Assembly (NCBI GenBank): GCA_946613885.1 | Contig: CAMOGA010000004.1 | Span: 3,205 to 67,204 of the forward strand | Direction of reading: 5' to 3' | Source: an uncultured Pseudomonadota bacterium | GTDB taxonomy: Bacteria; Pseudomonadota; Alphaproteobacteria; Rs-D84 | Length of the DNA: 64,000 bases | Shown here: one piece after another, positions 8,097-48,565 of the stretch | How the letters are laid out: each line of letters opens with the position of its first letter | Numbering within the stretch: the first letter of the stretch is position 1 | The notes under the pieces: generated by a model | What the model was told of the DNA's origin: nothing | Databases searched by the model: none | Seen by the model: only the letters and a program-made list of their open reading frames with translations | Made by a program: the position numbers and the translations under genes

Positions 8097-8170
8097 TGGA
8101 GGCCAGGGTCGGAATCGAACCGGCATCCAAGGATTTGCAGTCCTCTGCATAACCACTCTGCCACCTGGCC
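8097..8170 (-). tRNA. tRNA-Cys (anticodon GCA)
   Basis: Reverse complement GGCCAGGTGGCAGAGTGGTTATGCAGAGGACTGCAAATCCTTGGATGCCGGTTCGATTCCGACCCTGGCCTCCA. It has a 7-bp acceptor stem, anticodon loop CUGCAAA, T-loop TTCGATT, discriminator U73 and encoded CCA. One C-A mismatch in the T stem. Confidence 0.9.
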
Positions 8171-19840: not shown

Positions 19841-22018
19841 TTACATATTTATGTCTTCACAAGATTCGATTTGCTGACAAAAATCGGTTTTCCCGCCAGA
19901 TTGATACCCCAACACACCGGCACCAACCGCACCAACAACACCACCAATTGCCGTTCCCCATCCAGCATTTATCATTGTTCCTGCGGATGCGCCTGCGGAC
20001 AAACCACCGGCTGCTGCCTTCAATGCGGCGGTTGATTTTTTCTCGCCACCTTGTTCGCAAACCTGTTGCATACGACACACATGACAATTACGTGTATTTG
20101 GTTCAAACGAAACACTTTTTATATACATGTAATTTGATTTTGAATTCTTTGGTTGTTCTGCTTTGTATGTATTCAAACAAACCTGTTCCGCCTTGCTTAC
20201 ATCAGCTTTGCGTGTTAATTCTGCAATTTTCGTATCTAATTCACGCAAATTACGATTTTCTGCTGACATTTTTGCCAATAATTTTGCGGTATTAAATACA
20301 TTTGTTCCCAAAGAATTTTTTCCTTTCAATTTTTTACCACTGCCACTTTGTGAATCAGCGCATGCCGCAACCGTCTTGTCACGTTCAAATTGTTTGAAAA
20401 ATTCTTCAACAGACGCATCAGAGGCAGCGATTATCTTTGCACGCAAATTCGCAGATTTTGATTCAGTATCAGGCAGTTCTGTTAATTTTTCTACATCGTT
20501 TACAATTGGTAAACACGCCATATCTGTCCCACAAACCTTGCTTAATTGTTCACTAAAATAATTTACACAACCTGTTAACATCTGGTAATCCATTTGCAGA
20601 ATCGCAGATTGCACAATTATATCAAATTGAACTGCATTTTTACACGATGGGAACATACTCTGTGGACACAATGCTACAATTTCATACGATTTTTTACCAA
20701 CACATTCTGGTTTAGTAAAATCAACACCGCATTTATCTTGCAAGCATTTATCAACATCATTTTCACAGAATTTTGTCTGTAAATACCCCAGTTTATCATT
20801 AATTACAGATTGAAACCCAGGAATCATGTCATTACATTCTGTGATAACTGGACATATTCCAGCCGCCACATTAACATTAGTCAAACATTCCGCATTTGTA
20901 GATGTAGAACAACTTTCTTCCAAACAATTTTGAACACGTGCCAAACACGTTCCACGCTTGTTTGTATCTGCGTATTTTGCCGCCTCTGCCAGAACGCTTT
21001 TGGATTCAGCCGCCCAATCTTCGACAACATAATCACGTACCGCCATACACTGATCCAGAATATTATCACACGCATTTGAACGACGTTGCAATAATCCTGC
21101 ATCCAGACAGTTTTCAAAATTTGCACCACAACCACCCTTGTCTGCTATGCACGCACGATATGCCAACAAACATTCGCCACGATTGTATTTGTTTGTTGTG
21201 TCCAACATTTCCAAACGCGCTTTGCGAACCGCAGATTCCGCAATACGTTTATTAGATTCTGCATTTGCCTTTTGTTCTTTCAAATACGCATCATAAGTTT
21301 TGCAATCTTGGGTCACCATACGAGAATATAACAATTCTTCCATTTTTGCCCTATCACCACATGCCGCCAAATCTGGTTTACAATATTTTACCGCCATACC
21401 ATACAAAGAATCGCCAATTTCCACATCTTCATCCAAATCGCCACTATCATCACCAGATAACCAAGACATAAAATCTATACTGGAAATTTTCTGACTGGCC
21501 GGCGCATCATCTTTGAACACCAATCGTGCCTTGGCACCCAATTGTTCACGTTCGACACCTTCGGTAAACAATTTGTCGGCTTCTTCTTGAATTTTTAAAA
21601 CTTCATTAATTTTACTTTTGGCGCGTTCTATATTATCAGAACATGCGCAACGTTCACCCTGGCTTTCATCCAACAAACAAAAATTATCCATACATTCACG
21701 ATACGCATCACGACAATCGTTTGACGATACAACCGCATCATCAGACGCATCAACCATATCATCATCCGAATCGTCTGCAACATCATCATACACAGGCAAT
21801 GCCTGAGCCGCCGCAACAGTGTCGGCAGTAATCATTGCCCCAGCCGAAGTCGAAGTATTTGTATTTGTTTGTATGGCTTTGCCGGCCATACCTGGCATAC
21901 GTGCCGATGTTTGATTATTTCTGCTGACCCCAACGCGAACCTCGCTATCCCCGCGAGATGCCGCAAACGCGACCATTGGAACTAATAAAACCAACGGTAA
22001 AATTTTTATTATTTTCAT
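19841..22018 (-). CDS. CMD-box cysteine-rich secreted protein, paralog B (725 aa), with Gly-zipper near the C-terminus
   Basis: ATG 22018 (MKIIKILPLVLL...) lies 9 nt after an AGAGGGA SD. Contains CRDAYRECMDNFCLLDESQGERCACSD. Stop is 22 nt upstream of the paralog A start, suggesting an operon. Confidence 0.85.
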   Translation of the reverse strand: MKIIKILPLVLLVPMVAFAASRGDSEVRVGVSRNNQTSARMPGMAGKAIQTNTNTSTSAGAMITADTVAAAQALPVYDDVADDSDDDMVDASDDAVVSSNDCRDAYRECMDNFCLLDESQGERCACSDNIERAKSKINEVLKIQEEADKLFTEGVEREQLGAKARLVFKDDAPASQKISSIDFMSWLSGDDSGDLDEDVEIGDSLYGMAVKYCKPDLAACGDRAKMEELLYSRMVTQDCKTYDAYLKEQKANAESNKRIAESAVRKARLEMLDTTNKYNRGECLLAYRACIADKGGCGANFENCLDAGLLQRRSNACDNILDQCMAVRDYVVEDWAAESKSVLAEAAKYADTNKRGTCLARVQNCLEESCSTSTNAECLTNVNVAAGICPVITECNDMIPGFQSVINDKLGYLQTKFCENDVDKCLQDKCGVDFTKPECVGKKSYEIVALCPQSMFPSCKNAVQFDIIVQSAILQMDYQMLTGCVNYFSEQLSKVCGTDMACLPIVNDVEKLTELPDTESKSANLRAKIIAASDASVEEFFKQFERDKTVAACADSQSGSGKKLKGKNSLGTNVFNTAKLLAKMSAENRNLRELDTKIAELTRKADVSKAEQVCLNTYKAEQPKNSKSNYMYIKSVSFEPNTRNCHVCRMQQVCEQGGEKKSTAALKAAAGGLSAGASAGTMINAGWGTAIGGVVGAVGAGVLGYQSGGKTDFCQQIESCEDINM

Positions 22019-22044
22019 ATGAAACATTCCCTCTTTACCGTTTT

Positions 22045-22490: not shown

Positions 22491-24809
22491 ATGAGAAAAA
22501 TTTGTCTGATTTTAATCGGGCTTGTGTTGTGCATTAATAATGTTAATGCGGCTGTTCGTAATACTAACACACAAAATACAAGACAAATTGTATCCCCAAG
22601 AAATGATGTGAACACAATTGTTCGTGCAACCACGCAAAAACGTACTGTCACACAACGTTCATCTGGCAAAAATCAGAATACATCTGTGCGCGGAACTGCT
22701 AAAAAAACAGTAATTGGTCGTTCTGCAACGCAACCGATTACGTCTGCACGTAATAATATTGCACAACCAACCCGCGTATCACGTGCTGCAACAAATAATA
22801 TAAAAACACGTACATTTGGTGATAATTATAATTCATGTCGCGATGCATACTTTACGTGTATGGATCAATTTTGTGCAAATGTAAATGAAAATTATCGTCG
22901 CTGCGTTTGTTCGTCTAAATTAAAAGATATTCAAAACAAAGAAAAATTATTATCACAAACATCAACCAATCTGCAAAGTTTCGAAGATTTTAATATTGAT
23001 GCGATTTCAAAAACTGCCGCTGAGGTAAAAGCAATGGGTTCTGCAACAGCCGGTGAATCCGCAATAAAAAAAGACACATCTGCCAGTGCAAAAACATTAA
23101 ACAGCGTCAGTAGTGTTTTAAGTGATACAAAAAAACAATCTTTATCAACCGCTGGGAAATTAGATGCGGGTGGCGACATCAAAACAATCTGGGCAACAAC
23201 CGATTTTATTGGTGGTGCAGATATTGCCAATCTGACAGGCGATGCATTATTTAATGCAGTTCATTCACAATGCGCAGAAATGGTTGCTGAATCTTGTGCA
23301 GATTCTAATTTGAAAATGGTATCTTCTGCATATGGAATGTATATTGAAAATGATTGTGCGGTATTAGAAAATAACCTGAATAAAAAAACAACCGCGGCAA
23401 ATGCATCAATACGAACAACGCGTCATAAAATGCAGGACGCACGTTTGGAAAATTATAATGCACACAATTCATTAAATCTGGATGATTGTATTGCACGTGT
23501 TCGTTCAGATATTATCGCGGATACCGCATGTGGTGATGGATATATTCATTGTTTAGATTTTTCCGGTAAATATTTAAATATCACAACAGGTGCACCAATT
23601 TATTCGCCAGATTTTTACCAAATCGAAAATCAAATATCTTTATCTGGTGATGTTTTAAATAACAGTCAAAATTCATCGTTTATTACGATGCTGAACAAAA
23701 AACGGGCATTTGCCAAAAAAGATTTAGATTTATGTGTTGATGATGCAGATTATGTATGGAACGAATTTTTACGTCAGGCATTGGTTGAAATTTATCAGGG
23801 TCAACAAAAACGTGTTCAAAATGTAAAAAATGAATGTTTACAGGTTGTAAATGAATGTTATTTGAATCAATCTGAATCTTTGAAAAATTTTACAGATTCT
23901 TCTTCGCAAATGATATTCGTGCAATCGCTGGAATTATCCGAAGAAATGTGTGCTGAAAAACTGGATACTTGCAGCAACCTGTACGGTGGTGGCCCAGAAG
24001 GGTTAAACACATTAATTGCAACAATGACTGGCATAACAGATTTAACCATAGAACAATCATGTCCTGCGTTATTGGCAACATATGCTCAATCTATATGCAC
24101 CCCACCTGCCAGCGATTCTGCACATGCATATCCATACGGGTGTCGTAAATATGCGCCTGGTGAATCGTATTATGCCCGTAATGAAATATGCAATACAACA
24201 CTTGTAAATCCGTTTTCACGCTCTGATATTTTAACAACACACACAATGTCTTTGGGATATGCAGATTATGCCGGATATTGTGAAGATAAATCATATAATA
24301 AAATATATACCAGTTGTAATGTCGGATATTATTTACATAACACTGAATGTGCAAATTCAGACAGGGTTCTTTATGATTTTTGTTTACTTAACGCAACAGA
24401 ATGTCTTAAATGTCCTGATAATTTAATATGCCCTGGTGGGACAAAGGCGCCTGTTTCGATTGATGATGATTTGTACCAAAATTGCGGACAATATTATGTT
24501 GGCAGTTTATACCAACAATTGGTTATATACGCATTGCAAAATTGCACACGAACAACAAATACATCAAATGTGTTATCAGAATATCTGTTGTCAGAGGTTG
24601 ATAAAGTAGCAACCAGTGTTCGTATGTCTTTGGTATCTGCTTTGTCCAAAGAATGTTCCGATATGAACGGGTTGTGGGTTGATGCAATATGGTCAGATGA
24701 CAACAATGACGGATACCATGATAAAACTGGGGATACATTATTTGGTGATTTCTATGTTGCAACGGGCGCGAATAAATTGTGGGGTTATTGTAAAAATCCA
24801 AACCAATAA
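22491..24809 (+). CDS. CMD-box cysteine-rich secreted protein, paralog C (772 aa), with CxxCP-type C-terminal module
   Basis: Signal peptide (..NNVNA|AV), R/T/N-rich region, CRDAYFTCMDQFCANVNENYRRCVCSS and later family motifs. The C-terminus contains CLKCPDNLICPGG. Confidence 0.85.
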   Translation: MRKICLILIGLVLCINNVNAAVRNTNTQNTRQIVSPRNDVNTIVRATTQKRTVTQRSSGKNQNTSVRGTAKKTVIGRSATQPITSARNNIAQPTRVSRAATNNIKTRTFGDNYNSCRDAYFTCMDQFCANVNENYRRCVCSSKLKDIQNKEKLLSQTSTNLQSFEDFNIDAISKTAAEVKAMGSATAGESAIKKDTSASAKTLNSVSSVLSDTKKQSLSTAGKLDAGGDIKTIWATTDFIGGADIANLTGDALFNAVHSQCAEMVAESCADSNLKMVSSAYGMYIENDCAVLENNLNKKTTAANASIRTTRHKMQDARLENYNAHNSLNLDDCIARVRSDIIADTACGDGYIHCLDFSGKYLNITTGAPIYSPDFYQIENQISLSGDVLNNSQNSSFITMLNKKRAFAKKDLDLCVDDADYVWNEFLRQALVEIYQGQQKRVQNVKNECLQVVNECYLNQSESLKNFTDSSSQMIFVQSLELSEEMCAEKLDTCSNLYGGGPEGLNTLIATMTGITDLTIEQSCPALLATYAQSICTPPASDSAHAYPYGCRKYAPGESYYARNEICNTTLVNPFSRSDILTTHTMSLGYADYAGYCEDKSYNKIYTSCNVGYYLHNTECANSDRVLYDFCLLNATECLKCPDNLICPGGTKAPVSIDDDLYQNCGQYYVGSLYQQLVIYALQNCTRTTNTSNVLSEYLLSEVDKVATSVRMSLVSALSKECSDMNGLWVDAIWSDDNNDGYHDKTGDTLFGDFYVATGANKLWGYCKNPNQ

Positions 24810-37454: not shown

Positions 37455-39611
37455 TTATTCTATGCCATGTGATTGAGCCACGGCAGTATTTACTATACAT
37501 ATACTGCCCGACACAACACATGCAGATTGAACCAATTCGTATGTATTGCCCTGAATCAAATTAATTTGAACATTTGGACAATCATTCAAACGATTGTTAA
37601 ATTGACTGCATGCCTGTTGCCAAGATGCCATATCTGATACCGCAGATGTTGGCGACACAGTTTCCGGCAAACGCAAGTTCCATTTTACATAGAAATCTTT
37701 TAAAGAATCAATTGTGTGTGTTTTGCCCAATGCAACACTGTTCAAACCATCACCAACACGACAAGTAATGTTGCTGCGTTCAACCAAGGCGGTGATTCCT
37801 GTAACAATTCCACCGACACCGGCACCTGTTGCACCACCAACCAATGCACCCTTGGCGATTTCTGCGCCTTTGTTTGCATCTTTAACAACATCTTGTTTAA
37901 TATTCAATGAAGACAATAATTTTTGTAATTCATTGATTTGATATTGTATTTGGGCAACCGTCAAACAGTTATTATTATGTGAACACAATATTCCCGAATT
38001 GCCAGCCATATATGTTTGCACCTGTAAAGGAACGAACATACATTGTCTGTTAAATGTTTCAACACTTGATTGTGTTGTTCCAGCAGGTGCGCCACATTGT
38101 ATACTTTGACCAATCACCAATGTATTTCCGTCTTGAGACAAAACAATATTCCCACCAACAACTGTTTTGGTATCACCGCCGATTTTTGAAGAAATCGAAT
38201 TAGATATCTGCACATTTTGTTGGTTAGACAAACATTGTTTTACTAAACTGTCGTATAAAACAACTTTTTCTTCCAATTGGTGCAAATCACGACAATGGTC
38301 TTCATCCATTTCGTTAAAATTATATCCATCTGAGAATATTGGTGTTCCTGTAAATGTTTTTACATCACCGTTGCCAGAAAACATGACATTTTTATATGCA
38401 TAACTCTTTAACACACCTGCCTGACCAGATGCATATATCTTAGCACCCAATTCTTTACGGTATTTTTCATCTGTGCATGGATCATTTTTCGCATCAACAG
38501 AATCTAAATATGCCTGATGTTTTTCATTATAATTATGCGCACCAACGCCCGCGCCAATTGCAGTTCCCAATGCCGTACCACCACCAACAGCAACAACCGC
38601 TGTCGTTTTTGTTTTGTTCATCAATGAAAAATCAAACAAATCTTTGTTGCAAGTAAACGAAGAACCCGCACGTTGCCATACTTCGGCCGGATTATCATTA
38701 CCAACAGCCCCGAACAACCAACTGTTTTTAATCAATTCGTCTTTGTTATACGCAGCAACACGAACCAGACATTCTGCATTGCACCCATCCCAACGGGCAT
38801 AATGACCGCGATTACCACTGTATCCGACAGTATTTACGACATCACCTTGTGGATTATCTTTAGACAACATTCCTGCCCGTGCACCATTATATGCACCGAC
38901 ACGATTATTGTATTCTGAATTCACAGCATTTACATCTGAAACCGCAGCAAACGAAGAACCATACGTATTACGATCCAGCAACAAACATGTGTTTTCAGCC
39001 TGATTTGGTGTCAATCCAGTTTTTCTTAACACAAAATTATAATATTGTGGTTGAATAACTCTGGAATTAAAATCCAACCATACATCCGAAGATTGTGCAT
39101 AAACATTACGACAATCAACACGCACCTCTGCAATACATCTTTCAATTTCTGCCTGACACAAATGCATACCGTTCATAACAGAATTTCGAATATCGTCATT
39201 ACAGAACAAATCATTTATTCCGCCCGGCAAAGCCCCAGTATTAATACATTGCAATATGCTGTCCATACACATTTTTATTGTGTACGCAGAATTTCTTACC
39301 CCACCATCTGGGCATTCTGGATCTGGGTCTGGATCCGGGTTTGGATCTGGGTCTGGATCAGGTGTTGGTGTTGGAACGACATGTGGCATACCTGCCTCGA
39401 CCGGTGCAGTGACAACATGAACCGCCGGATTGCCGATTGTATTCAACCCAACCGTTGGTATAGTTGGCATACGCGCAGACATGGTTGAACGCCCACTTTG
39501 TGAATTTTGATTTCCACGTGGATCATCGCGCCCAGCCGCAAACGCAGCACCAAAAACAGCCAATGTGGCAATACTAACCACTGATTTTCCAAATAAATTC
39601 AATACTTTCAT
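37455..39611 (-). CDS. Cysteine-containing secreted/membrane protein, divergent paralog D (718 aa), with (PD)n linker and two Gly-zipper segments
   Basis: AGGGGA SD and signal peptide MKVLNLFGKSVVSIATLAVFGAAFA|A. The SARMP motif is shared with paralog B. The CMD-like box is AYTIKMCMDSILQC. Confidence 0.8.
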   Translation of the reverse strand: MKVLNLFGKSVVSIATLAVFGAAFAAGRDDPRGNQNSQSGRSTMSARMPTIPTVGLNTIGNPAVHVVTAPVEAGMPHVVPTPTPDPDPDPNPDPDPDPECPDGGVRNSAYTIKMCMDSILQCINTGALPGGINDLFCNDDIRNSVMNGMHLCQAEIERCIAEVRVDCRNVYAQSSDVWLDFNSRVIQPQYYNFVLRKTGLTPNQAENTCLLLDRNTYGSSFAAVSDVNAVNSEYNNRVGAYNGARAGMLSKDNPQGDVVNTVGYSGNRGHYARWDGCNAECLVRVAAYNKDELIKNSWLFGAVGNDNPAEVWQRAGSSFTCNKDLFDFSLMNKTKTTAVVAVGGGTALGTAIGAGVGAHNYNEKHQAYLDSVDAKNDPCTDEKYRKELGAKIYASGQAGVLKSYAYKNVMFSGNGDVKTFTGTPIFSDGYNFNEMDEDHCRDLHQLEEKVVLYDSLVKQCLSNQQNVQISNSISSKIGGDTKTVVGGNIVLSQDGNTLVIGQSIQCGAPAGTTQSSVETFNRQCMFVPLQVQTYMAGNSGILCSHNNNCLTVAQIQYQINELQKLLSSLNIKQDVVKDANKGAEIAKGALVGGATGAGVGGIVTGITALVERSNITCRVGDGLNSVALGKTHTIDSLKDFYVKWNLRLPETVSPTSAVSDMASWQQACSQFNNRLNDCPNVQINLIQGNTYELVQSACVVSGSICIVNTAVAQSHGIE
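39315..39374 (-). repeat. In-frame (Pro-Asp)n / PTPT coding microsatellite
   Basis: ggatctgggtctggatccgggtttggatctgggtctggatca encodes PTPTPDPDPDPNPDPDPDPE. Confidence 0.8.
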
Positions 39612-39699
39612 GATATTTCCCCTAGATTCCTGTAAGAACATTATATCATATAATTGACATAATAAAAAGTTTTTTTGTAAATTATTTTTTATAAAAATA

Positions 39700-39733: not shown

Positions 39734-40690
39734 ATGAATAAGGTTTTAGAATTTTTTAAATCAAAAATAATTATTGTCAAATGGACAATATGGTATTTTT
39801 TTGTATTGTGGTTAATTTTGAAATATATATTCAAATTTGATATGTTTTCTTATCATTATTGGTGGACATTTTTTCATGCAACATTACACGGATTTGCCGG
39901 ATTAACATTTGGTTTATTGATGTATGGCGCAATACCGGTTTATATAGCAACAACCGTCATCACATATCGTAAAAAAGAATTTATAGTCAAAATTCCTGGA
40001 TGGGATAAATTTGTTGATTTTATAAAAAAAATATTTACAACAAAACCTGTTGAGGTATCAGAACCAGAACCCGAATCCGAAGAACAAGAACAAAATCAAG
40101 AACCAGAATTTCCACCCGAATTACCACCTGAATTACGTATTCCATTTATGCGTGCAAAAAAACATCTGTCTTTAAATGGGGCGGTATCCGTGTATAACCA
40201 ACAACCAACCGCCACACAAAAACAAATCGAATCGGTTCCAAACAATACCCCAGAACCACAAATACCAATTCCAACTGATTTTGACATTGGTGATGAAATT
40301 GCCGACATTCACGATTCGATTCCAACATTTACAGACATTAATTTTGACACACCAATTGCAACCGAAAAAGAATTAGAAAACAACACAACAAAATATTTAA
40401 ACACGCATAATATTGAATTTGAAACGTATCGTAATTTTGTTGCAACGGAAAAATATTTAATATACGAACACAGCGATAATGATTTTTGGATTATGGATGG
40501 TGATTCTTGGTTTGCATCTGGAAAACAAATTGATTCACCAATACAAGAATTAATTGATATCGCAAAACAAAATAATTTAACACCGGTAATTTATTTACAA
40601 TCAACCAATATAATGGATTTAGATACCACAATCGCAAACTTTGAATCTATGGGCATCAAAGTAATTAAAGATTTGAGTGAATTAGATTAA
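39734..40690 (+). CDS. Membrane protein (3 N-terminal TM helices, acidic PE-rich linker, C-terminal globular domain), unknown function
   Basis: Hydrophobic N-terminus, EPEPESEEQEQNQEPEFPPELPPEL linker. Located between paralogs D and E. Confidence 0.6.
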   Translation: MNKVLEFFKSKIIIVKWTIWYFFVLWLILKYIFKFDMFSYHYWWTFFHATLHGFAGLTFGLLMYGAIPVYIATTVITYRKKEFIVKIPGWDKFVDFIKKIFTTKPVEVSEPEPESEEQEQNQEPEFPPELPPELRIPFMRAKKHLSLNGAVSVYNQQPTATQKQIESVPNNTPEPQIPIPTDFDIGDEIADIHDSIPTFTDINFDTPIATEKELENNTTKYLNTHNIEFETYRNFVATEKYLIYEHSDNDFWIMDGDSWFASGKQIDSPIQELIDIAKQNNLTPVIYLQSTNIMDLDTTIANFESMGIKVIKDLSELD

Positions 40691-40716: not shown

Positions 40717-43401
40717 TTAATGTGATTTTCCCATTTGGACGGTTTCTGTATTCAGCACAGTTCCTTCATCAAATTGATCACAATAGCCACCACCTATTCT
40801 GTGTTTAAAATTGGTACAATTATATTTAGTGGTCGTAATCGTACAAACATTTGTTGCAGAATCATACGTTGCAATAGTATCTGTCAATTGTTTAATTTTT
40901 CTGCATGCCAAATGTTTAAGGGTATAATTATCATCCGCATCCTTGCCACAACCAGTCTTTGTTTCTAATTTAGTACCATTCCAAATACGATAACTTGTTC
41001 TGTGACTGTCTTCTGCTGTATATTTATCACAACTCTTTTGATTTTCTTCATCTTTATCAACTTCATTATCGGCATAAATCATTTCGGCAATTTGATTATC
41101 CAAATCTGCTATTTGTTGTGTATATTTACTGGTTAATTCAGCATTTTTTTCTGATAACCTATTTAATAAACTGTCTGCAATAACACTGCGGTATGAATCC
41201 GTCAGATTCGGGAAACGTGCTTTGCCTGCTTCTTTACTTCCGAAATTTTTTGTACTATCAAAGCCCTGCACTTTACGCCCTTCTGTACAATAAATAACCT
41301 TAGGATCTGTGTTAATTGATGCCATTATACGATTTAATGCATTATCCAAAATTGGCGATACTTTATCATCACCAGAAAACTTCACTTCTCTGCGACCGTT
41401 GTTATCTTCTGTGTAATCGTACGATACTTTATATATATCTGGTGTCCCAACCAGAGTCGCCTGATAGTTTCCAGATTTTAAATCATTGGTGGTCATCATT
41501 GCCAAACCAGATTTACAGTCATTTCCTGGTTTACCATTTGGACAAATCTGAACACTGATATCACGTTCCAAAGGCGACAAATCAAATGTTGCAGCATCAC
41601 AAGTTTCTGTATCACCACAAATTTTTACCATGGCTTCGTTTGCCGCATTTTGACATGCGGTTGCCAGTGCATTATCAATTTGTATTGCCAATCCCTGGGC
41701 GATTTGTGCAACATATTCTTTAACCGTTTCTTCATTATATTTCGGTTTACCATTTTCATCTGCACTCATACATGCTGTCAATTTTTGATATGGACATATA
41801 TCACCAATTGAGTCAGTATCCAAACCGATACAGCCCGAATAATCATCGCCACAACGTTCGGTCAAACATGCCTTGACTTCTGTTGTACATGCATCAACCT
41901 TCATTGCACCCAATATCGCCAATAATCCGTTCCACAAAGTTGATTTTGTTGGGTTATTATAATCCCCACCGGTGGCTTCCAAACATGGTTCCAATTGAAC
42001 CTTGCATAACGATTTGTATGTTTCTGGATTGGATAAACACATATCGTATGAATCACTGTCCCCAAAATTGGATTTACATGCATTTTGGAAACATTTTGCA
42101 AGTGTTGGTATACAATTCGAACGTAAATTTTGTTCAGCAATTAATTCTGCAGATTTTATCGCAGGTGCCGCATTACGTAAAAATCCGTTCCATACTGCAT
42201 CATTTTTGTTTGAATTAACACACTGTTTTGTGATACGTTCGCAAATCATTTTCTTTGCCAATAATTGTTCCATTGTTGATGCAGCCAATGTTATATCTGC
42301 ACCACCACGTGAACCCTTGATTTTAGATTGCTTTGCAACACTGCCTTTCTTGTTATTTTTTACATTTTCATTGGCCGCCAATGTCACACATCCTGTATAA
42401 TCATCACCACATTCTGCGGTTGTTTTCATACATTCAGTAAATGCAATCACACATTCACCAGTTGTTGCATATTTATTCTGATTTTTATATTCATCCAATG
42501 CTGCATCACGTAATGCCTTTTGTGCAGTTTGTAATTTTTGTTGACTTTGACTTCTTTGCGCCTTTAAACTGTTTTCATACGCGATACAATCAGATTTAAT
42601 TTTTTGCGCATAAACCAATGATAACATTGAACCATAACTTTTGCATTGCGCAGGAATCTGGGCAGAACATATTTTTACTGTTTCGTTATATAATGCCGTT
42701 CCTTTCTTATCCATCAAAGATTGTTGGGCAGATTGCGCATCAAAAATATCATCATCTAAATCAGAAAACACATTATTATCGAATATAGACAAATCTAATG
42801 TACGCGCCCGCTTTTTATTTTCTTCGGTCTGTTTGTTGGCATTTGCAGCCTGTTCGCCAGCCATTTGGGCACGTTTCATAATTTCCGCCTCGGCTTCGCC
42901 CATTTGAATACGTTCGACACCTTCGGTTGCCATGATATATGATTGTTCATCCAGTTTTACAATTTCTTCCAGAACTTTATCTAATTCAGTAATTTTATCA
43001 TTACATTGACAACGACCGCCGGTTGCATTGTCTAACATACAAAACGCATCCATACATCCATAAAAAGCATTTTGACATTCTTCTGGCACCGCAGTATTTT
43101 CGGTTGCCACTGCAACCTTGGTTCCTGTATTTATGACCTTTTGCGTGGCACCCGCACGTGCCGCCTGAACACCAGGTTTTACCGCCGTCTGTTTTTTGCC
43201 AGCCCGTGCAGAAACATTTCCATTATTTACAACCTGTTGACGTTTACCTGCGCGTGCATTATTTACATTTACTGTTTCTGATGTATCATTGTTCACCGTA
43301 TTAACAGCATTATTACGTCCACGTTGGGCAACCGCCGCATTTGCAGTAAAATCCGCCACACAAAGCGATAAAAACAATGCAAAAAACATATATTTGCGCA
43401 T
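40717..43401 (-). CDS. CMD-box cysteine-rich secreted protein, paralog E (894 aa)
   Basis: AAGGAG SD, signal peptide (..FTANA|AV), three ARAG repeats, CQNAFYGCMDAFCMLDNATGGRCQCND. Long identical blocks with paralog A (MKVDACTTEVKACLTERCGDDYSGCIGLDTDSIGDICP). Confidence 0.85.
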   Translation of the reverse strand: MRKYMFFALFLSLCVADFTANAAVAQRGRNNAVNTVNNDTSETVNVNNARAGKRQQVVNNGNVSARAGKKQTAVKPGVQAARAGATQKVINTGTKVAVATENTAVPEECQNAFYGCMDAFCMLDNATGGRCQCNDKITELDKVLEEIVKLDEQSYIMATEGVERIQMGEAEAEIMKRAQMAGEQAANANKQTEENKKRARTLDLSIFDNNVFSDLDDDIFDAQSAQQSLMDKKGTALYNETVKICSAQIPAQCKSYGSMLSLVYAQKIKSDCIAYENSLKAQRSQSQQKLQTAQKALRDAALDEYKNQNKYATTGECVIAFTECMKTTAECGDDYTGCVTLAANENVKNNKKGSVAKQSKIKGSRGGADITLAASTMEQLLAKKMICERITKQCVNSNKNDAVWNGFLRNAAPAIKSAELIAEQNLRSNCIPTLAKCFQNACKSNFGDSDSYDMCLSNPETYKSLCKVQLEPCLEATGGDYNNPTKSTLWNGLLAILGAMKVDACTTEVKACLTERCGDDYSGCIGLDTDSIGDICPYQKLTACMSADENGKPKYNEETVKEYVAQIAQGLAIQIDNALATACQNAANEAMVKICGDTETCDAATFDLSPLERDISVQICPNGKPGNDCKSGLAMMTTNDLKSGNYQATLVGTPDIYKVSYDYTEDNNGRREVKFSGDDKVSPILDNALNRIMASINTDPKVIYCTEGRKVQGFDSTKNFGSKEAGKARFPNLTDSYRSVIADSLLNRLSEKNAELTSKYTQQIADLDNQIAEMIYADNEVDKDEENQKSCDKYTAEDSHRTSYRIWNGTKLETKTGCGKDADDNYTLKHLACRKIKQLTDTIATYDSATNVCTITTTKYNCTNFKHRIGGGYCDQFDEGTVLNTETVQMGKSH

Positions 43402-44166: not shown

Positions 44167-45195
44167 TTATTTATACGGATCTTCGTATTTTTTTGCCAAT
44201 TCAGCAATGTTTTCTGGTGGCCATCCTGGAACTTCCATTCCTAATGACAATCCCATTGCTTCCAATTGTGCCTTAATCTCGTTCAAAGATTTGCGTCCAA
44301 AGTTCGGTGTTTTCAACATATCGTTTTCGGTTTTTTGAACCAATTCACCCAACCAATTAATACGATCATTCTTTAAACAATTTGTTGCACGAACAGACAA
44401 TTCTAATTCGTCAACATGTTTCAATAATTTTGGATCAAATGGTAAAACATCTTTGGATTTTTCATCGTCATCACCAGATGTAATTTGTGTCGGATCTTCA
44501 AAGTTAATGAATACGTTCAATTGATCTGTCAAAATACGCGCAGCAAACGCAATTGCATCTTCTGGGGTGACAGAACCATTTGTTTTAACCGTCAATTCCA
44601 ATTTGTCGTAATCTGTTGATTGACCAACACGGGTTTGTGAAACGTTTGATGCAACGTTCAAAATTGGCGAATAAATTGAATCAACTGGGATTGTTCCCAA
44701 TGGTAAATTTGCCGCATTAACAGTTGCAGGAACATACCCACGACCAGATGCCAATGTGATTTCCATATCCAACACTGCGCCATTATCCAAAGTGCAAATT
44801 TCTGCATCTTTGTTCATAACTTCGACATTGCCAGATGTTTCAATCATGCCTGCCGTCACAACCGCTGGGCCTTTGACTTTTATTGTCGCCTTGTGTTGAC
44901 CTTCGGTTAACGCTTTGAAATAAACACCTTTTAAATTCAAAATAATATCTGTGACATCTTCGCGAACGCCGGCTAAACTGCTGAATTCATGCTGAACACC
45001 ATCAATTTTAACATAGATTGGTGCGCATCCCTGCAAAGAAGACAACAACACACGACGCAAAGCCGTTCCCAACGTCAAACCAAAACCCTTTTCCAAAGGT
45101 TCTGCGATTAATGTTGCGATATTTGGGTTATTTTCATCGACTTTGATATTCAATTTTTTTGGCTTAATCAAAGTCATCCAGTTTTTTTCAATCAT
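44167..45195 (-). CDS. rpoA: DNA-directed RNA polymerase alpha subunit
   Basis: Canonical N-terminal domain ([22 protein letters not shown]) and C-terminal domain ([13 protein letters not shown]). Confidence 0.95.
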
Positions 45196-45261
45196 TTTTT
45201 ACTCCATCGGGCTTAGTTTATTATTTTCACCAGATTTACACACAACCGTGTGTGTTCGGAA

Positions 45262-45290
45262 ATTCTATAATAATTTTTTTGAATTGTCAA
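45262..45290 (-). promoter_or_regulatory. Predicted dedicated promoter of rpoA-rplQ (TTGACA-17-TAGAAT)
   Basis: Minus strand: TTGACA (45290-45285) and TAGAAT (45267-45262), followed by an ACACACA-cggt-TGTGTGT hairpin (45255-45238) in the leader. Confidence 0.45.
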
Positions 45291-45295
45291 TTATT

Positions 45296-46339
45296 TTAAT
45301 TATTTTCTGATACGTTTTTGACAACACGCGTATTAATTCTGCCAACGGTTAAAACAGACGGTATTTCTATATTACTGCCGTTTCCAAACGACAATTTTAT
45401 TGACACTGCCTTACAATCATCGGCTTTTGTTTTCCCGGTCCCATTTGTCGTTGTTCCCGATGGACATGAGATACAAGACGATGCACCAGTACCTGAGAAA
45501 GTTCCAATTGGGCATATATAATCATTATTATCAACACTGTTGGGTTTGCAACTATTATTTCTATTACTCCCAGTCATCCCAGTGTTTGGACAATAATATC
45601 CTGCAAGACACGAAACACATGATTCAGCGCCAGCCCATGAACATGTGCCAACAGAACAGGCAATTGACATCCCATTTCCAGAACAATATGACCCCGCAGG
45701 ACATTGTTCACAAACACCATTTAACATATAATGTCCCGTATTGCACGCAATACAATCATTATGTTCAGCATTTGCAAAATTACCGGTTGCACACGTTTGG
45801 CACACATTGTTATTGTCATAATATTCTGTTAATCCATCACATACCACACATTGTGTATGGTCTGAATTCGAATACGGTGTTTCACCATCACATTGTGTAC
45901 ATTGCACCGCACCAGCATCGGATATTTCGGCACCCTGACAAGAATTTATATTGCCATCACCATTACAATACGACCCCGCAGGACATTGTTCACAAACACC
46001 ATTTAACATATAATGCCCCGCATTGCATGCAACACAACCGTTATGATTTGTATTTGCAAATTTTCCAGATTCACACGTTTGACACACATTGTTGTTATCA
46101 TGATATTTTGTTAATCCATCACATGCCACACATTGTGTATATGTTGAATCTGAATATGGTGCATCATCTGGACACAGTTGCGGTGCGTTTGTGCCGTCAC
46201 ATGAATACCCACCGGGACATGTTTCGCAAACACCGCCATTATCATATTCACCCACATCACATGCAAATACACCATATATACCACCAACGGATACACATAC
46301 AAACATTATCCCAGACAAAAAACATTTCCATAAATGCAT
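45296..46339 (-). CDS. Secreted CxxC-repeat protein (347 aa, 38 Cys, 12 CxxC motifs)
   Basis: N-terminal hydrophobic signal/anchor, then repeated C-x2-C-x-[AG]-G-x-Y modules. Own promoter and SD. Confidence 0.8.
   Translation of the reverse strand: MHLWKCFLSGIMFVCVSVGGIYGVFACDVGEYDNGGVCETCPGGYSCDGTNAPQLCPDDAPYSDSTYTQCVACDGLTKYHDNNNVCQTCESGKFANTNHNGCVACNAGHYMLNGVCEQCPAGSYCNGDGNINSCQGAEISDAGAVQCTQCDGETPYSNSDHTQCVVCDGLTEYYDNNNVCQTCATGNFANAEHNDCIACNTGHYMLNGVCEQCPAGSYCSGNGMSIACSVGTCSWAGAESCVSCLAGYYCPNTGMTGSNRNNSCKPNSVDNNDYICPIGTFSGTGASSCISCPSGTTTNGTGKTKADDCKAVSIKLSFGNGSNIEIPSVLTVGRINTRVVKNVSENN
45653..46174 (-). repeat. Tandem duplication with 282-bp (94-aa) period inside the 347-aa gene
   Basis: ccccgcaggacattgttcacaaacaccatttaacatataatg occurs at 45692 and again at 45974. 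At the protein level, CPDDAPYSDSTYTQCVAC... parallels CDGETPYSNSDHTQCVVC... Confidence 0.8.
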
Positions 46340-46372
46340 GGATAAATCGCCTTTCCTAATATCTCAGGAAAT

Positions 46373-46401
46373 ATCATAGCAATATAAAAAAAATCATGCA
46401 A
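46373..46401 (-). promoter_or_regulatory. Predicted promoter (TTGCAT-17-TGcTATGAT) of the 347-aa gene
   Basis: Minus strand: TTGCAT (46401-46396) and TATGAT (46378-46373). Confidence 0.4.
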
Positions 46402-46410
46402 CAAAAAACA

Positions 46411-48069
46411 TCAAAGTTCAGATGCCTCAAACAATGTCTTGCGGATACCGGCGTTCGTTTTAACCGCATCGGCACAGTGTTTTGCACACGCAGTTTCACA
46501 AAACGGTAAAGCCACAGGATTCACCATTACCCACTTCTGGGTAGGTTTGATTTTGCAGCCATTAATGGTAAAATCTGCCCCGCTTGAAGAACAAGAACAC
46601 TTTTTATCATTACAACTGGCACTGCCTGTTAAAATTCCACCATGATAAGTGACAGACCATGTATTGCCACTAGAAGTGGCCATAACTCCGGACAAAGCGA
46701 GTGCCCTGTCACACCCCCTCCCGACATAAGCATTTGATGCATCGCGTGACTTATTCGTATTTACTGCAATCTTTGCACATTTCCCGTTCACCACATTGTA
46801 CCCATGTTTACAGTCTGTGGCACGACAAGACCAATCTATACGACCATTATTATTAGCACATTCACATTGTGCTTTGGACACAGATTCATCTAGGCGATAC
46901 CCATAACTGGATTGGCAATATAAGAACCTGTTATCGTCACAATCCACATCTATTTTTGCCCCCAAATCAAAGGTTTCGTAATCATCACCAAAAAAATGAC
47001 TGCATACATCTTTTGTTGACCCTTCTTTTACACAATTCGTATCCTCCTGTTGTATCCAGCCATCTTTACAGTGAGAGATATAACAGACCCACCCCACAGG
47101 GGTACACTTGCAATATCCGTCCCCGAAACCAGATGTATCATATAATATTGCTAACCCTGTACAATCTGTATCATCTGTAAAACAATTAAAATCTATGCGT
47201 TCGTCCTTCTTATATTCTTTGCCCTTGAATATACATTGGTCGGTATTATGGTTATTATTTGCCGATGTTTTTTTATTTTCTGATGTCTTTTTATTTTCTG
47301 ATGTCTTTTTTACGCATTTTGTTTTGTCTGATGATGGGGTATAAGGTTTGGCACATGCTGTCACCTCACATTTTTCACCGTGTTTTACCGCACGTATAAC
47401 ATTTTCATCCGTTTTCTGCGCATCTGCGGTGCAATCGGTTTCAGTATCAACAACATTTAATTCACAATGTTGTTTATCTGAGGTTGGTTGATACCCGGTA
47501 TCGCATTCTATGATTTCACATGTTTCGCCGTTCTTGGTCGCTTTTGTGACATTTTCATCTTTCGCCTTTGCTTCATCCGTACAATCCGTTGTATCTGTGG
47601 GCTGAACAGTCGTTGGTTGCTGCGGTTGTGTCACAGTTATTACAACACACGCCCCATTTTGATACACTTTGCCTGTTTCATTACATGTGCAAGTGCTATT
47701 ATTATATGTTCCACCTGCCCGTTCACATTGTTCACGTAGTATTTGTTCCGCCGCAGCCAGACGTTTTTGTTCTTCTAATTTTTTTATATTTTCTTGGGTA
47801 TCTGATATTTGTTTGTCTGTTTTTTCTATCTTTTTATCATAATCTTTTTGCGTGTTTGACAATGCAATATTACCGGCAACACCGACCGCAGTTAATCCCA
47901 ATGTTGATATACCAGCAATTTTCCATCCATTTATATTACCACTGCATTTTTCCAATTCAGCCATCTTTTGTTGTTTTTCCGCAACCAATTGATTATAACG
48001 CGCACTGGCCCCAAATACGTATGTTGGGATGATTGCCATCATTAATGAAATTAATATGCATTTCTTCAT
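46411..48069 (-). CDS. Cysteine-rich secreted/membrane-anchored protein (552 aa) with coiled coil and internal repeats
   Basis: Signal peptide ending ..VFGA|SAR, Gly-rich hydrophobic helix (WKIAGISTLGLTAVGVAGNIAL), coiled coil, then a Cys-rich region. Confidence 0.8.
   Translation of the reverse strand: MKKCILISLMMAIIPTYVFGASARYNQLVAEKQQKMAELEKCSGNINGWKIAGISTLGLTAVGVAGNIALSNTQKDYDKKIEKTDKQISDTQENIKKLEEQKRLAAAEQILREQCERAGGTYNNSTCTCNETGKVYQNGACVVITVTQPQQPTTVQPTDTTDCTDEAKAKDENVTKATKNGETCEIIECDTGYQPTSDKQHCELNVVDTETDCTADAQKTDENVIRAVKHGEKCEVTACAKPYTPSSDKTKCVKKTSENKKTSENKKTSANNNHNTDQCIFKGKEYKKDERIDFNCFTDDTDCTGLAILYDTSGFGDGYCKCTPVGWVCYISHCKDGWIQQEDTNCVKEGSTKDVCSHFFGDDYETFDLGAKIDVDCDDNRFLYCQSSYGYRLDESVSKAQCECANNNGRIDWSCRATDCKHGYNVVNGKCAKIAVNTNKSRDASNAYVGRGCDRALALSGVMATSSGNTWSVTYHGGILTGSASCNDKKCSCSSSGADFTINGCKIKPTQKWVMVNPVALPFCETACAKHCADAVKTNAGIRKTLFEASEL
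47262..47318 (-). repeat. Three 18-bp tandem repeats encoding (KKTSEN)3
   Basis: tgatgtctttttattttc is repeated; the protein reads KKTSENKKTSENKKTSAN. Confidence 0.8.
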
Positions 48070-48090: not shown

Positions 48091-48099
48091 ATTATATCA
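48091..48099 (-). promoter_or_regulatory. Extended -10 element (TGATATAAT) upstream of the 552-aa gene
   Basis: Minus-strand TGATATAAT, weak -35, AAGGA SD 9 nt before the ATG. Confidence 0.35.
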
Positions 48100-48129: not shown

Positions 48130-48161
48130 AAAAAAAAATGGGTTGCCCTGTTGGCAACCCA
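48130..48161 (-). terminator. Strong rho-independent terminator immediately after rpsK
   Basis: Minus strand: TGGGTTGCC-aacag-GGCAACCCA (9-bp GC-rich stem) followed by T9. Confidence 0.7.
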
Positions 48162-48181
48162 AATAAATAATACACAAATTA

Positions 48182-48565
48182 TTATACGCGACGTACTTTC
48201 TTTGGACGGCACCCGTTGTGTGGAATACGTGTTGTATCTGTGATTGATTGAATTACCAATCCGGCATTTGCCAAACCACGTACTGCTGATTCACGACCTT
48301 GACCAATTCCGCGCATTAAAACATCAACTGTTTGCATTCCCATTTCAGCGACTTTTTTACCAACTGCATCTGCAACAACTGTCGCGGCATATGGTGTTGA
48401 TTTTTTTGCACCCTTGAAATTATTAGCCCCTGCGGTTGCCCATGTTAATACGGCGCCCGTTTGGTCTGTGATTGTGATACGTGTATTGTTATTAGTTGCA
48501 ACCACATGCGCAATTCCATGTGATACTTTTTTAACAACTTTCTTTTTTGATTTTGTAATTGCCAT
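48182..48565 (-). CDS. rpsK: 30S ribosomal protein S11
   Basis: Conserved sequence (ATAGANNFKGAKKSTPYAA...IPHNGCRPKK) and operon position. Confidence 0.95.
   Translation of the reverse strand: MAITKSKKKVVKKVSHGIAHVVATNNNTRITITDQTGAVLTWATAGANNFKGAKKSTPYAATVVADAVGKKVAEMGMQTVDVLMRGIGQGRESAVRGLANAGLVIQSITDTTRIPHNGCRPKKVRRV

Follow-up and report, generated by a model that had tools for sequence, protein, structure and literature searches.

X347, a cysteine-rich Ephrin_rec_like repeat protein encoded between rpsK and rpoA of an uncultured Candidatus Enterousia bacterium

The X347 gene and its module type

The 64-kb stretch of DNA analysed here over its whole length (the window) comes from an uncultured Candidatus Enterousia of the Alphaproteobacteria, order Rs-D84, and carries, within a gene cluster that is among the most conserved in bacteria, a slot that changes fast. 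The gene order is rpsM, rpsK, X552, X347, rpoA, rplQ, X894, and the subject of this study is X347 (45296..46339, minus strand), a coding sequence taken from the list of open reading frames (ORFs) and specifying a cysteine-rich protein of 347 amino acids (aa). The slot is bounded upstream by rpsK, the gene for S11 (48182..48565, minus strand), and downstream by rpoA (44167..45195, minus strand), as placed by the ORF list and by synteny. The rpoA of the window falls into a 90%-identity cluster named 'Alphaproteobacteria bacterium'. Species-representative rpoA relatives at 82-94% identity belong to metagenome-assembled genomes (MAGs) of Candidatus Enterousia or of Alphaproteobacteria, the sources being goat, yak, buffalo, sheep, deer, horse, chicken, human (Hadza), and termite guts. 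Members of Enterousia, a genus of order Rs-D84, have genomes of 0.75-1.0 Mb (PMC12306168; PMC11257099); they have neither a tricarboxylic acid cycle nor a respiratory chain, their glycolysis is incomplete, and a lifestyle dependent on a partner was suggested by the authors (PMC12306168). The window itself encodes PFOR, a TolC/HlyD/MacB export system, and the peptidoglycan enzymes SLT and M23, so that the host is a diderm, anaerobic and walled.

That X347 is a real coding gene is confirmed, and an identical protein is found in public data on a 91.9-kb contig. A recount together with sequence shuffling bears out the figures of a preliminary description of this DNA, which had given 347 aa, 38 cysteines (11.0%), and 12 CxxC motifs: shuffled versions of X347 hold 4.0 +/- 1.8 such motifs, with 12 or more in 0/20,000 shuffles, and when one repeat copy is taken out the 7 motifs left compare with 2.4 expected, a number reached in 91/20,000 shuffles. 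The recurring C-x2-C context pointed out in the same description is likewise found, nine motifs fitting C-x2-C-x-[AGSTD]-G-x-[YFSTH]. The mature protein has 36 cysteines, an even number, spaced regularly as C-x2-C-x10-14, and the TGT codon is strongly preferred for them (32/38 in the whole protein). At the N-terminus, a Sec-type signal peptide can be read from the sequence (aa 1-26; 46262..46339, minus strand), with MHLWK followed by a hydrophobic core and VFA-C, the hyphen marking the predicted cleavage; all X347 orthologues have an equivalent hydrophobic N-terminus, and the AlphaFold model is disordered over the signal peptide, with a predicted local distance difference test score (pLDDT) of ~45. 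The VFA-C sequence raised the possibility of lipoprotein anchoring, which was rejected: in the orthologues the first cysteine lies 1 to 12 residues past the predicted cleavage region, as in AYA-C, VYA-AGSDNC, and SYA-VPQ..., and, as its position is not kept, a lipobox in X347 is unlikely. An antisense ORF of 319 aa, rich in histidine and glutamine (45400-46359, plus strand), was also set aside as a mirror-image artefact of the codon periodicity of cysteine and glycine; conservation, the signal peptide, and the ratio of non-synonymous to synonymous substitution rates (dN/dS) all favour X347, so the minus strand is taken as coding.

Selection was assessed by comparing window genes with their orthologues in L085, a strain represented by a 125-kb contig. 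The dN/dS of X347 is 0.32 (29 synonymous and 36 non-synonymous differences), that of X894 is 0.33, and that of X552, at 0.74, is the highest in the region. At comparable dS, dN is 0 for rpoA, rpsK, and rpsM, and rplQ shows one amino-acid change. X347 is therefore functional yet evolves far faster than its neighbours, whose rpoA, rpsK, and rpsM products are unchanged.

Against Pfam, X347 matches Ephrin_rec_like (PF07699), the family formerly named GCC2_GCC3, with 23.7 bits (E=4.3e-5; gathering cut-off 23.1). Orthologues in the same slot score 51.4, 57.0, 55.2, 38.8, 27.1, 26.9, and 26.7 bits, one (P0006) falls below the cut-off at 19.0 bits, and the family members L010, L012, and L018 have no PF07699 match. 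The score of X347 against PF23091 (TNFR_ELAPOR1_6th) is 25.6, under the cut-off of 33.2, which the orthologue P0005 reaches with 33.5; PF00020 (TNFR_c6) is without a match in the Pfam search of X347. A weak Zn_ribbon_RanBP match (E=0.044) occurs in one orthologue. X347, X552, X894, and their orthologues are all without a model in NCBIfam, and literature searches on '6BHPP' (PF27023), a faint precomputed match of orthologues, returned nothing relevant.

Structural comparison points the same way. A profile of the X347 family, searched against solved structures, finds MST1 of Chlamydomonas (8tx1_A, annotated as an Ephrin_rec_like domain protein) with E=1.4e-27, and ELAPOR1 with E ~1e-6. AlphaFold2 models built from two alignments, the second limited to closer family members from the homologue searches, have a mean pLDDT of 77 and 75 and consist of short beta-hairpins only. 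Confidence exceeds 85-90 over about aa 100-230, and in the second model repeat copy 2 (see below) has a pLDDT of 88-97 through aa 210, falling to 77-85 by aa 240. When the X347 model is compared with the PDB by Foldseek, MST1 chains come top (E=2e-10 to 1e-6, probability 1.0), followed by ELAPOR1 (1e-3), the tumour necrosis factor (TNF) receptors 4-1BB, DR6, and CD40 (~1e-2), and the EphA4 ectodomain; the TM-scores between X347 and MST1 are low (0.3-0.37), as expected for long rods. These results support the assignment of the X347 modules to CxxC beta-hairpins of the Ephrin_rec_like/TNFR-like type, and a convergent origin is unlikely because profile and fold evidence agree. The module is known and mainly eukaryotic; its arrangement in X347 is a new bacterial architecture.

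The likeness to ephrin-receptor-like/GCC2-GCC3 repeats proposed in the preliminary description is thus upheld by the PF07699 score of X347, by orthologues at 27-57 bits, and by MST1 in both profile and fold comparisons. Two other likenesses that it had suggested were not recovered: furin-like or growth-factor-receptor cysteine-rich families are absent among the Pfam matches of X347 at E<=1, and the protist variant surface protein (VSP) family PF03302 is matched at E<=1 neither by X347 nor by its orthologues, the VSP profile being hit weakly by the mollusc homologue P0013 only.

Beyond its last cysteine X347 carries a tail of ~40 aa (aa 309-347; 45299..45415, minus strand), common to most family members examined and conserved in orthologues that are otherwise 28-45% identical, with the pattern C-K-x-[IV]-x-[IV]-K-L-x-F-G...[IL]-P-x-x-L-x-x-G-[RK]-I-N-T-R-V-V-K-N; some slot proteins have no recognisable version of it. 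The C-terminal end (...GRINTRVVKNVSENN) is polar and lacks a hydrophobic segment, and the tail has neither a transmembrane segment nor a Pfam or NCBIfam match. Anchoring, sorting, and partner binding are candidate roles.

The tandem duplication and the variation of the slot

X347 contains a tandem duplication with a period of 282 nucleotides (nt), or 94 aa. The unit and its length had been described beforehand and are confirmed here, the repeat alignment placing two full units: copy 1, with 10 cysteines in five CxxC hairpin sub-modules, spans aa 56-149 (45893..46174, minus strand) and copy 2 spans aa 150-243 (45611..45892, minus strand). Protein identity between the full units is 65% and DNA identity 74%, and a core of 213 nt (45672-45884 versus 45954-46166) is 84% identical. 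The copies differ at 49/94 codons, 15 synonymously and 34 non-synonymously. Their longest identical run has 44 nt (45690-45733 and 45972-46015), matching the identical stretches noticed earlier at 45692 and 45974. Tandem Repeats Finder did not call the 282-nt repeat, the copies being too diverged for it; find_repeats did.

The duplication had been described as recent, a view that does not hold against its age relative to the strains. Between the copies, dS is 0.44 in the core and 0.56 over the full unit, values three to four times as high as the 0.14 measured between two strains that each carry both copies, so the duplication is well older than the strain split. The L085 strain has the same two copies, and its X347 gene is 93.8% identical in DNA; copy 1, at 90.4% identity between window and L085, is the faster-evolving copy between strains, copy 2 being 98.9% identical. 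Both copies find their best match, at 46-55% identity, in one and the same segment of P0003 and of P0004, orthologues of 39% identity. Since the copies share this segment and yet are 65% identical to each other, the duplication arose within the lineage of the window.

The persistence of the repeat in independent assemblies, on which the preliminary description had made its reality depend, was borne out by the two-copy form, which is present on a 91.9-kb, a 125-kb, and a 3.4-kb contig from three separate assemblies, with a protein identity of 92-96% that varies with the alignment used. Two one-copy forms (253 aa) were found, confined to contigs of 919 and 1584 bp, with a coverage, where given in the contig name, of 1.5x and 2.2x. 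Their junctions differ, lying at gene nt 200-215 in one and nt 325-381 in the other, and both fall inside the longest identical runs. These forms may be real recombinational deletion alleles or collapses by the assembler. Contigs of Joint Genome Institute (JGI) metagenomes gave no match when scanned for a 29-nt stretch common to both copies, and a protein-based scan gave no relative.

Beyond the strains of the window's species, the position of the gene is kept. Homologues at 32-39% identity (P0003, P0005, and P0007) lie directly upstream of rpoA-rplQ, which is followed by an ORF of ~900 aa. Among species-representative loci where both genes could be placed, the distance from rpsK to rpoA ranges from 28-130 bp in the most distant genomes, the outgroups, up to 4.3 kb. 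A neighbour-joining rpoA tree places all CxxC-rich slot genes in a single clade of 16 leaves. Thirteen of these have long versions, of 251, 317, 329, 347 (twice), 359 (twice), 488, 569, 613, 749, 760, and 964 aa, where 329 aa is an ATG-only ORF call for P0007, a protein of 374 aa, and where the window and L085, as well as L002 and L003, represent the same or closely related taxa. Two further leaves have mini versions of ~90 aa that keep one module and a tail-like end, and the contig of the sixteenth (L009) ends within the slot. Most simply, the slot gene would have been acquired once, at the base of the clade, with modules then being gained and lost on a large scale.

The slot is also occupied elsewhere. 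Outside the CxxC clade (L005-L084) the rpsK-rpoA distance still varies from 28 bp to 4.3 kb, with unrelated ORFs: three of ~106, 660, and 245 aa are found in L063, L067-L070, and L079, and five in L058. In L072, L073, and L075, rpsM-rpsK is inverted and lies downstream of rpoA. For gene insertion in the genus Enterousia, the 3' end of this ribosomal-protein cluster appears to serve as a general hot spot. A mobile-element origin of the slot was considered for the window and rejected, since neither direct nor inverted repeats flank the slot and no tRNA gene lies next to it.

Proposed function and alternative explanations

With a probability of roughly 0.6, X347 is proposed to be an exported rod of Ephrin_rec_like modules that acts at the surface, in adhesion or as a protective coat, and that belongs to a clade-specific family of slot proteins varying by gain and loss of modules. 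We infer the surface location, the cysteine chemistry, and the adhesion or coat function from the features described above and from comparison with known systems. The closest of these is MST1, a protein of the Chlamydomonas mastigoneme (PDB 8tx1, 8wa2, and 9b4h), which like X347 is built of tandem CxxC beta-hairpin modules, and whose cysteine-rich 'SD' tandem is the best structural representative of Ephrin_rec_like arrays. In that region a spiral ladder of disulfides ~11 A apart is thought to stiffen the extracellular filament (PMC10602792). MST1 is extracellular, as X347 would also be. Unlike MST1-type proteins, X347 is bacterial, has 347 aa, and is made of modules only, with no immunoglobulin (Ig) domains, polyproline helix, transmembrane segment, or kinase, and it ends in a conserved C-terminal tail of its own.

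By analogy with the MST1 ladder, X347 would be exported via its Sec signal peptide and its modules would stack into a thin, stiff rod, stapled by disulfides or possibly by metal ions; 18 disulfides at MST1 spacing would give a rod of ~20 nm, with ~5 nm contributed by each 94-aa unit. Rod length and surface would vary between species, and possibly within populations, with gain and loss of modules as the main form of diversification and with point substitutions that are fast as well. Length and surface residues may be tuned to a partner cell, to the host, or to immune or phage pressure. Given the partner-dependent lifestyle suggested for Enterousia, attachment or a protease-resistant coat would be the likeliest role of X347.

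Other known proteins share parts of this picture. Domains of ELAPOR1 and of the TNF receptors (PF23091 and PF00020) are second-tier matches in sequence and fold; unlike in TNF receptors, nothing in X347 points to a ligand-binding receptor role. Giardia VSPs (PF03302) resemble X347 in being exported and CxxC-rich, in varying in length and evolving fast, and in coming from anaerobic microbes of the gut. A CRGKA tail is a feature of Giardia VSPs; unlike them, X347 has no such tail, no C-terminal membrane anchor, and no PF03302 match, and, as far as is visible, it is one gene at a fixed locus and not a switching family. Surface proteins and adhesins that vary in repeat number are a general class in bacteria, as are 'eukaryote-like' proteins in host-dependent ones. 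With repeat-variable bacterial adhesins X347 has in common its signal peptide, its tandem modules, the copy-number change at identical stretches, a dN above that of the housekeeping neighbours, and a host- or partner-dependent organism. Unlike known bacterial adhesins, it has no known anchor, its module type is not characterised in bacteria according to the literature searches, and its location inside the rpsM-rpsK-rpoA-rplQ cluster is unusual.

Several observations weigh against the proposal of an exposed rod. The PF07699 score of X347 exceeds the cut-off by 0.6 bits only, HMMER flags a high compositional bias for the MST1 alignments, and the tail is modelled with a pLDDT of 37-60 over aa 311-347 in both AlphaFold runs. 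X347 could stay in the periplasm, since neither a lipobox nor a transmembrane segment is present and Pfam and NCBIfam give no match to a secretion or sorting domain. The putative disulfides would have to form in an anaerobe of a genus lacking the respiratory chain (PMC12306168), and no Dsb gene lies within the 64-kb window.

The leading alternative concerns the origin of the modules and is compatible with the surface-rod proposal. It holds that they came by an ancient transfer from a eukaryote to a bacterium, for example from a gut protist partner, were domesticated and amplified in the slot, and are used towards a eukaryotic host. An exhaustive HMMER search returned 1852 cluster representatives at E<=1e-3, many of them giant (2000-8000 aa). 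Named homologues outside the clade are almost all eukaryotic, coming from Triparma, Cyanophora, Eimeria, Cystoisospora, and the fornicate Kipferlia, and from a brown alga, molluscs, an annelid, a fish, and a bird, so the statement of the preliminary description that such periodicity is uncommon in bacteria was reasonable; literature searches on bacterial Ephrin_rec_like/GCC2_GCC3 proteins returned nothing relevant. A homologue of 1288 aa with a C-terminal membrane anchor (L089:5422-9288) lies on a compact eukaryotic contig with CCT, Rab-GDI, CBF, and aldolase genes and a GC content of 39%, in an assembly whose ENA accession (ERZ27277089) is numerically close to those of two that yielded Enterousia contigs (ERZ27257205 and ERZ27316343). 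It may stem from a protist that lives in the same gut habitat and that is imaginable as a partner or donor. Another homologue is on a eukaryotic-type contig of 2.2 Mb with transposon and reverse-transcriptase genes, and the slot gene is absent from the outgroup genomes. An old eukaryotic origin of the modules is plausible.

Other evidence argues against the full transfer scenario. The same modules occur in other bacteria, namely in a Fibrobacteria MAG and as two adjacent Ephrin_rec_like-type genes on a bacterial contig (L092:3169-5416) with RlmN, IalB, NUDIX, and U32 peptidase genes; one product of the latter pair, P0011 (439 aa, 11.8% cysteine), has three nearly identical tandem units of ~96 aa, which looks like a much more recent module expansion than that of X347. 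No eukaryotic group stands out as sister, E-values being <=1e-45 within the clade and then forming a broad plateau from 1e-20 to 1e-30, and cysteine-rich repeats are too short and too compositionally biased for a reliable phylogeny. The GC content of X347 (39.8%) and its GC content at third codon positions (GC3, 25.1%) match those of neighbouring genes (38-43% and 26-36%). Taken whole, the transfer scenario can be offered only tentatively. As a recent event, the host-derived transfer raised in the preliminary description is not supported, given this composition check and a synteny kept across the 16-leaf clade.

X347 might instead be a structural protein of the periplasm or envelope, one of many cysteine-rich cross-linkers of the envelope and not an exposed adhesin; the cysteine-rich outer-membrane complex of chlamydiae offers a functional comparison. 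Its Sec signal, in the stated lack of a recognised secretion or sorting domain, would suit this role, as would the presence in the window of five other secreted cysteine-rich ORFs without a Pfam domain (X552 and four of the X894 family). Structural envelope proteins are usually conserved, however, and the X347 family ranges from ~90 to 964 aa and evolves far faster than its neighbours; peptidoglycan-processing enzymes are moreover present, and a wall substitute is not obviously needed. An envelope role is on balance unlikely.

A different use of the cysteines would have the CxxC pairs bind metal, as zinc or iron knuckles, or buffer thiol redox, making X347 a metal-stabilised rod or a scavenger of metal or oxygen. 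Metal binding and thiol redox by CxxC have been reported for Giardia VSPs. The spacing CxxC-x10-13-CxxC is also a zinc-ribbon pattern, with which the weak Zn_ribbon_RanBP match in an orthologue agrees, and the anaerobe has no respiratory chain to re-oxidise DsbB; the absence of Dsb genes, also in favour, comes from a search that covered only 64 kb of the genome. Set against this are the best matches in sequence and fold, which are disulfide-laddered extracellular domains, and the even number of cysteines in the mature protein, and metal or redox chemistry as the basis of X347 is doubtful.

A bolder version of the surface-rod proposal would make the rpsK-rpoA slot, in one clade of Enterousia, a dedicated contingency locus with its own promoter and read-through into rpoA, in which a eukaryote-derived, protease-resistant CxxC rod serves as the main exposed antigen or attachment organelle towards a partner, eukaryotic or bacterial. 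Recombination between identical stretches of the modules, to which the one-copy and two-copy alleles and the lengths of ~90 to 964 aa among species would be due, would alter rod length and surface within populations. This is a speculative extension with little probability behind it; if true, bacteria would have in this locus a counterpart to the variant surface proteins of protists. It is highly improbable that faulty assembly produced the duplication or the entire ORF, or that X347 is a pseudogene in decay, for the one-copy versions and the silence of Tandem Repeats Finder are outweighed by the two-copy form in three assemblies, by a 26% nucleotide difference between the copies that is no simple assembler stutter, by an intact reading frame with a dN/dS of 0.32, and by one-copy junctions that sit exactly in the longest identical runs on short contigs, which makes these the likelier collapsed forms, unless they are real deletion alleles.

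Bacteria of Enterousia/Rs-D84 occur widely in the guts of ruminants, horses, birds, humans, and termites, and their dependence on a partner has been proposed (PMC12306168). Their secreted cysteine-rich proteins are concrete candidates for molecules of contact with partner or host. The rpsK-rpoA slot offers a marker locus for strain typing, and X347 a tractable case for the rise of Ephrin_rec_like modules or their movement between domains of life, and for the folding of cysteine-rich proteins in an anaerobe. Even if X347 were an ordinary repeat protein, the claims of a recent duplication and of a host-derived transfer would stand corrected.

Neighbouring genes, regulatory signals, and other features

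The second gene of the slot, X552 (46411..48069, minus strand), is an ORF of 552 aa with a signal peptide and 6.9% cysteine, lies directly upstream of X347, and is probably co-transcribed with it. Its product has a coiled-coil-like N-terminal part, two units of ~55 aa with the pattern CT[DA][ED]A...DENV...K[NH]GE[TK]CE...C, and a KKTSEN repeat present three times, and has no significant Pfam match. The L085 orthologue has 543 aa; X552 is found only in the species of the window, apart from a partial match of 36% in L056. The spacer that separates X552 from X347 is 71 nt long and holds two tandem copies of a 19-nt unit, AAAAATCATAGCAACAAAAA (46369-46408).

Signals around the pair suggest a transcription unit of its own. 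Directly after rpsK lies an intrinsic-terminator-like hairpin followed by a T-run (48139..48161, minus strand; 9-bp stem with 6 GC pairs, then T9), and ~20 nt upstream of the X552 ribosome-binding site an extended -10-like element, TGaTATAAT, read from the sequence (48091..48099, minus strand), is a candidate promoter, one that a consensus promoter scan did not report. Terminator prediction gave none between X552 and X347 and none after X347, and one after rplQ. Given the terminator after rpsK, the -10-like element, and the lack of a predicted terminator after X347, transcription of the X552-X347 pair probably starts at a promoter of its own and continues into rpoA. Of all promoter-like sites in the region, the best is a sigma-70-like TTGACA-17-TAGAAT with 11/12 matches, located between the X347 stop codon and rpoA (45262..45290, minus strand). 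A short, perfect hairpin, ACACACAC-GG-TTGTGTGT (45238-45257, minus strand), lies between that site and the ribosome-binding site of rpoA and could be a regulatory structure of the 5' untranslated region; an Rfam search over the window returned a tRNA-Cys only and no leader RNA, this hairpin being unmatched.

Together with X347 and X552, the X894 family occupies ~12.5 kb, or 20% of the 64-kb window. It comprises four secreted paralogues of 730-890 aa with 4-5% cysteine: X894 (40717-43401, minus strand) and the proteins encoded at 17182-19818 (minus strand), 19841-22027 (minus strand), and 22491-24809 (plus strand), for which phmmer comparison of the paralogues with X894 gave E-values of 2e-121, 2e-32, and 2e-25. 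The family has no match in Pfam or NCBIfam, and X347 is the only secreted cysteine-rich protein of the window whose fold can be assigned. In most Enterousia loci the gene after rplQ is an X894 orthologue; some genomes have a copy upstream of rpoA instead. Two further ORFs, of 728 aa (37455-39641, minus strand) and 318 aa (39734-40690, plus strand), have no Pfam or NCBIfam match and follow the X894 orthologue in the same order in L001, L002, L004, and L085. The only tRNA gene of the window is that for tRNA-Cys (GCA), at 8097-8170 (minus strand); its occurrence as the sole tRNA gene in a segment rich in cysteine codons is probably a coincidence.

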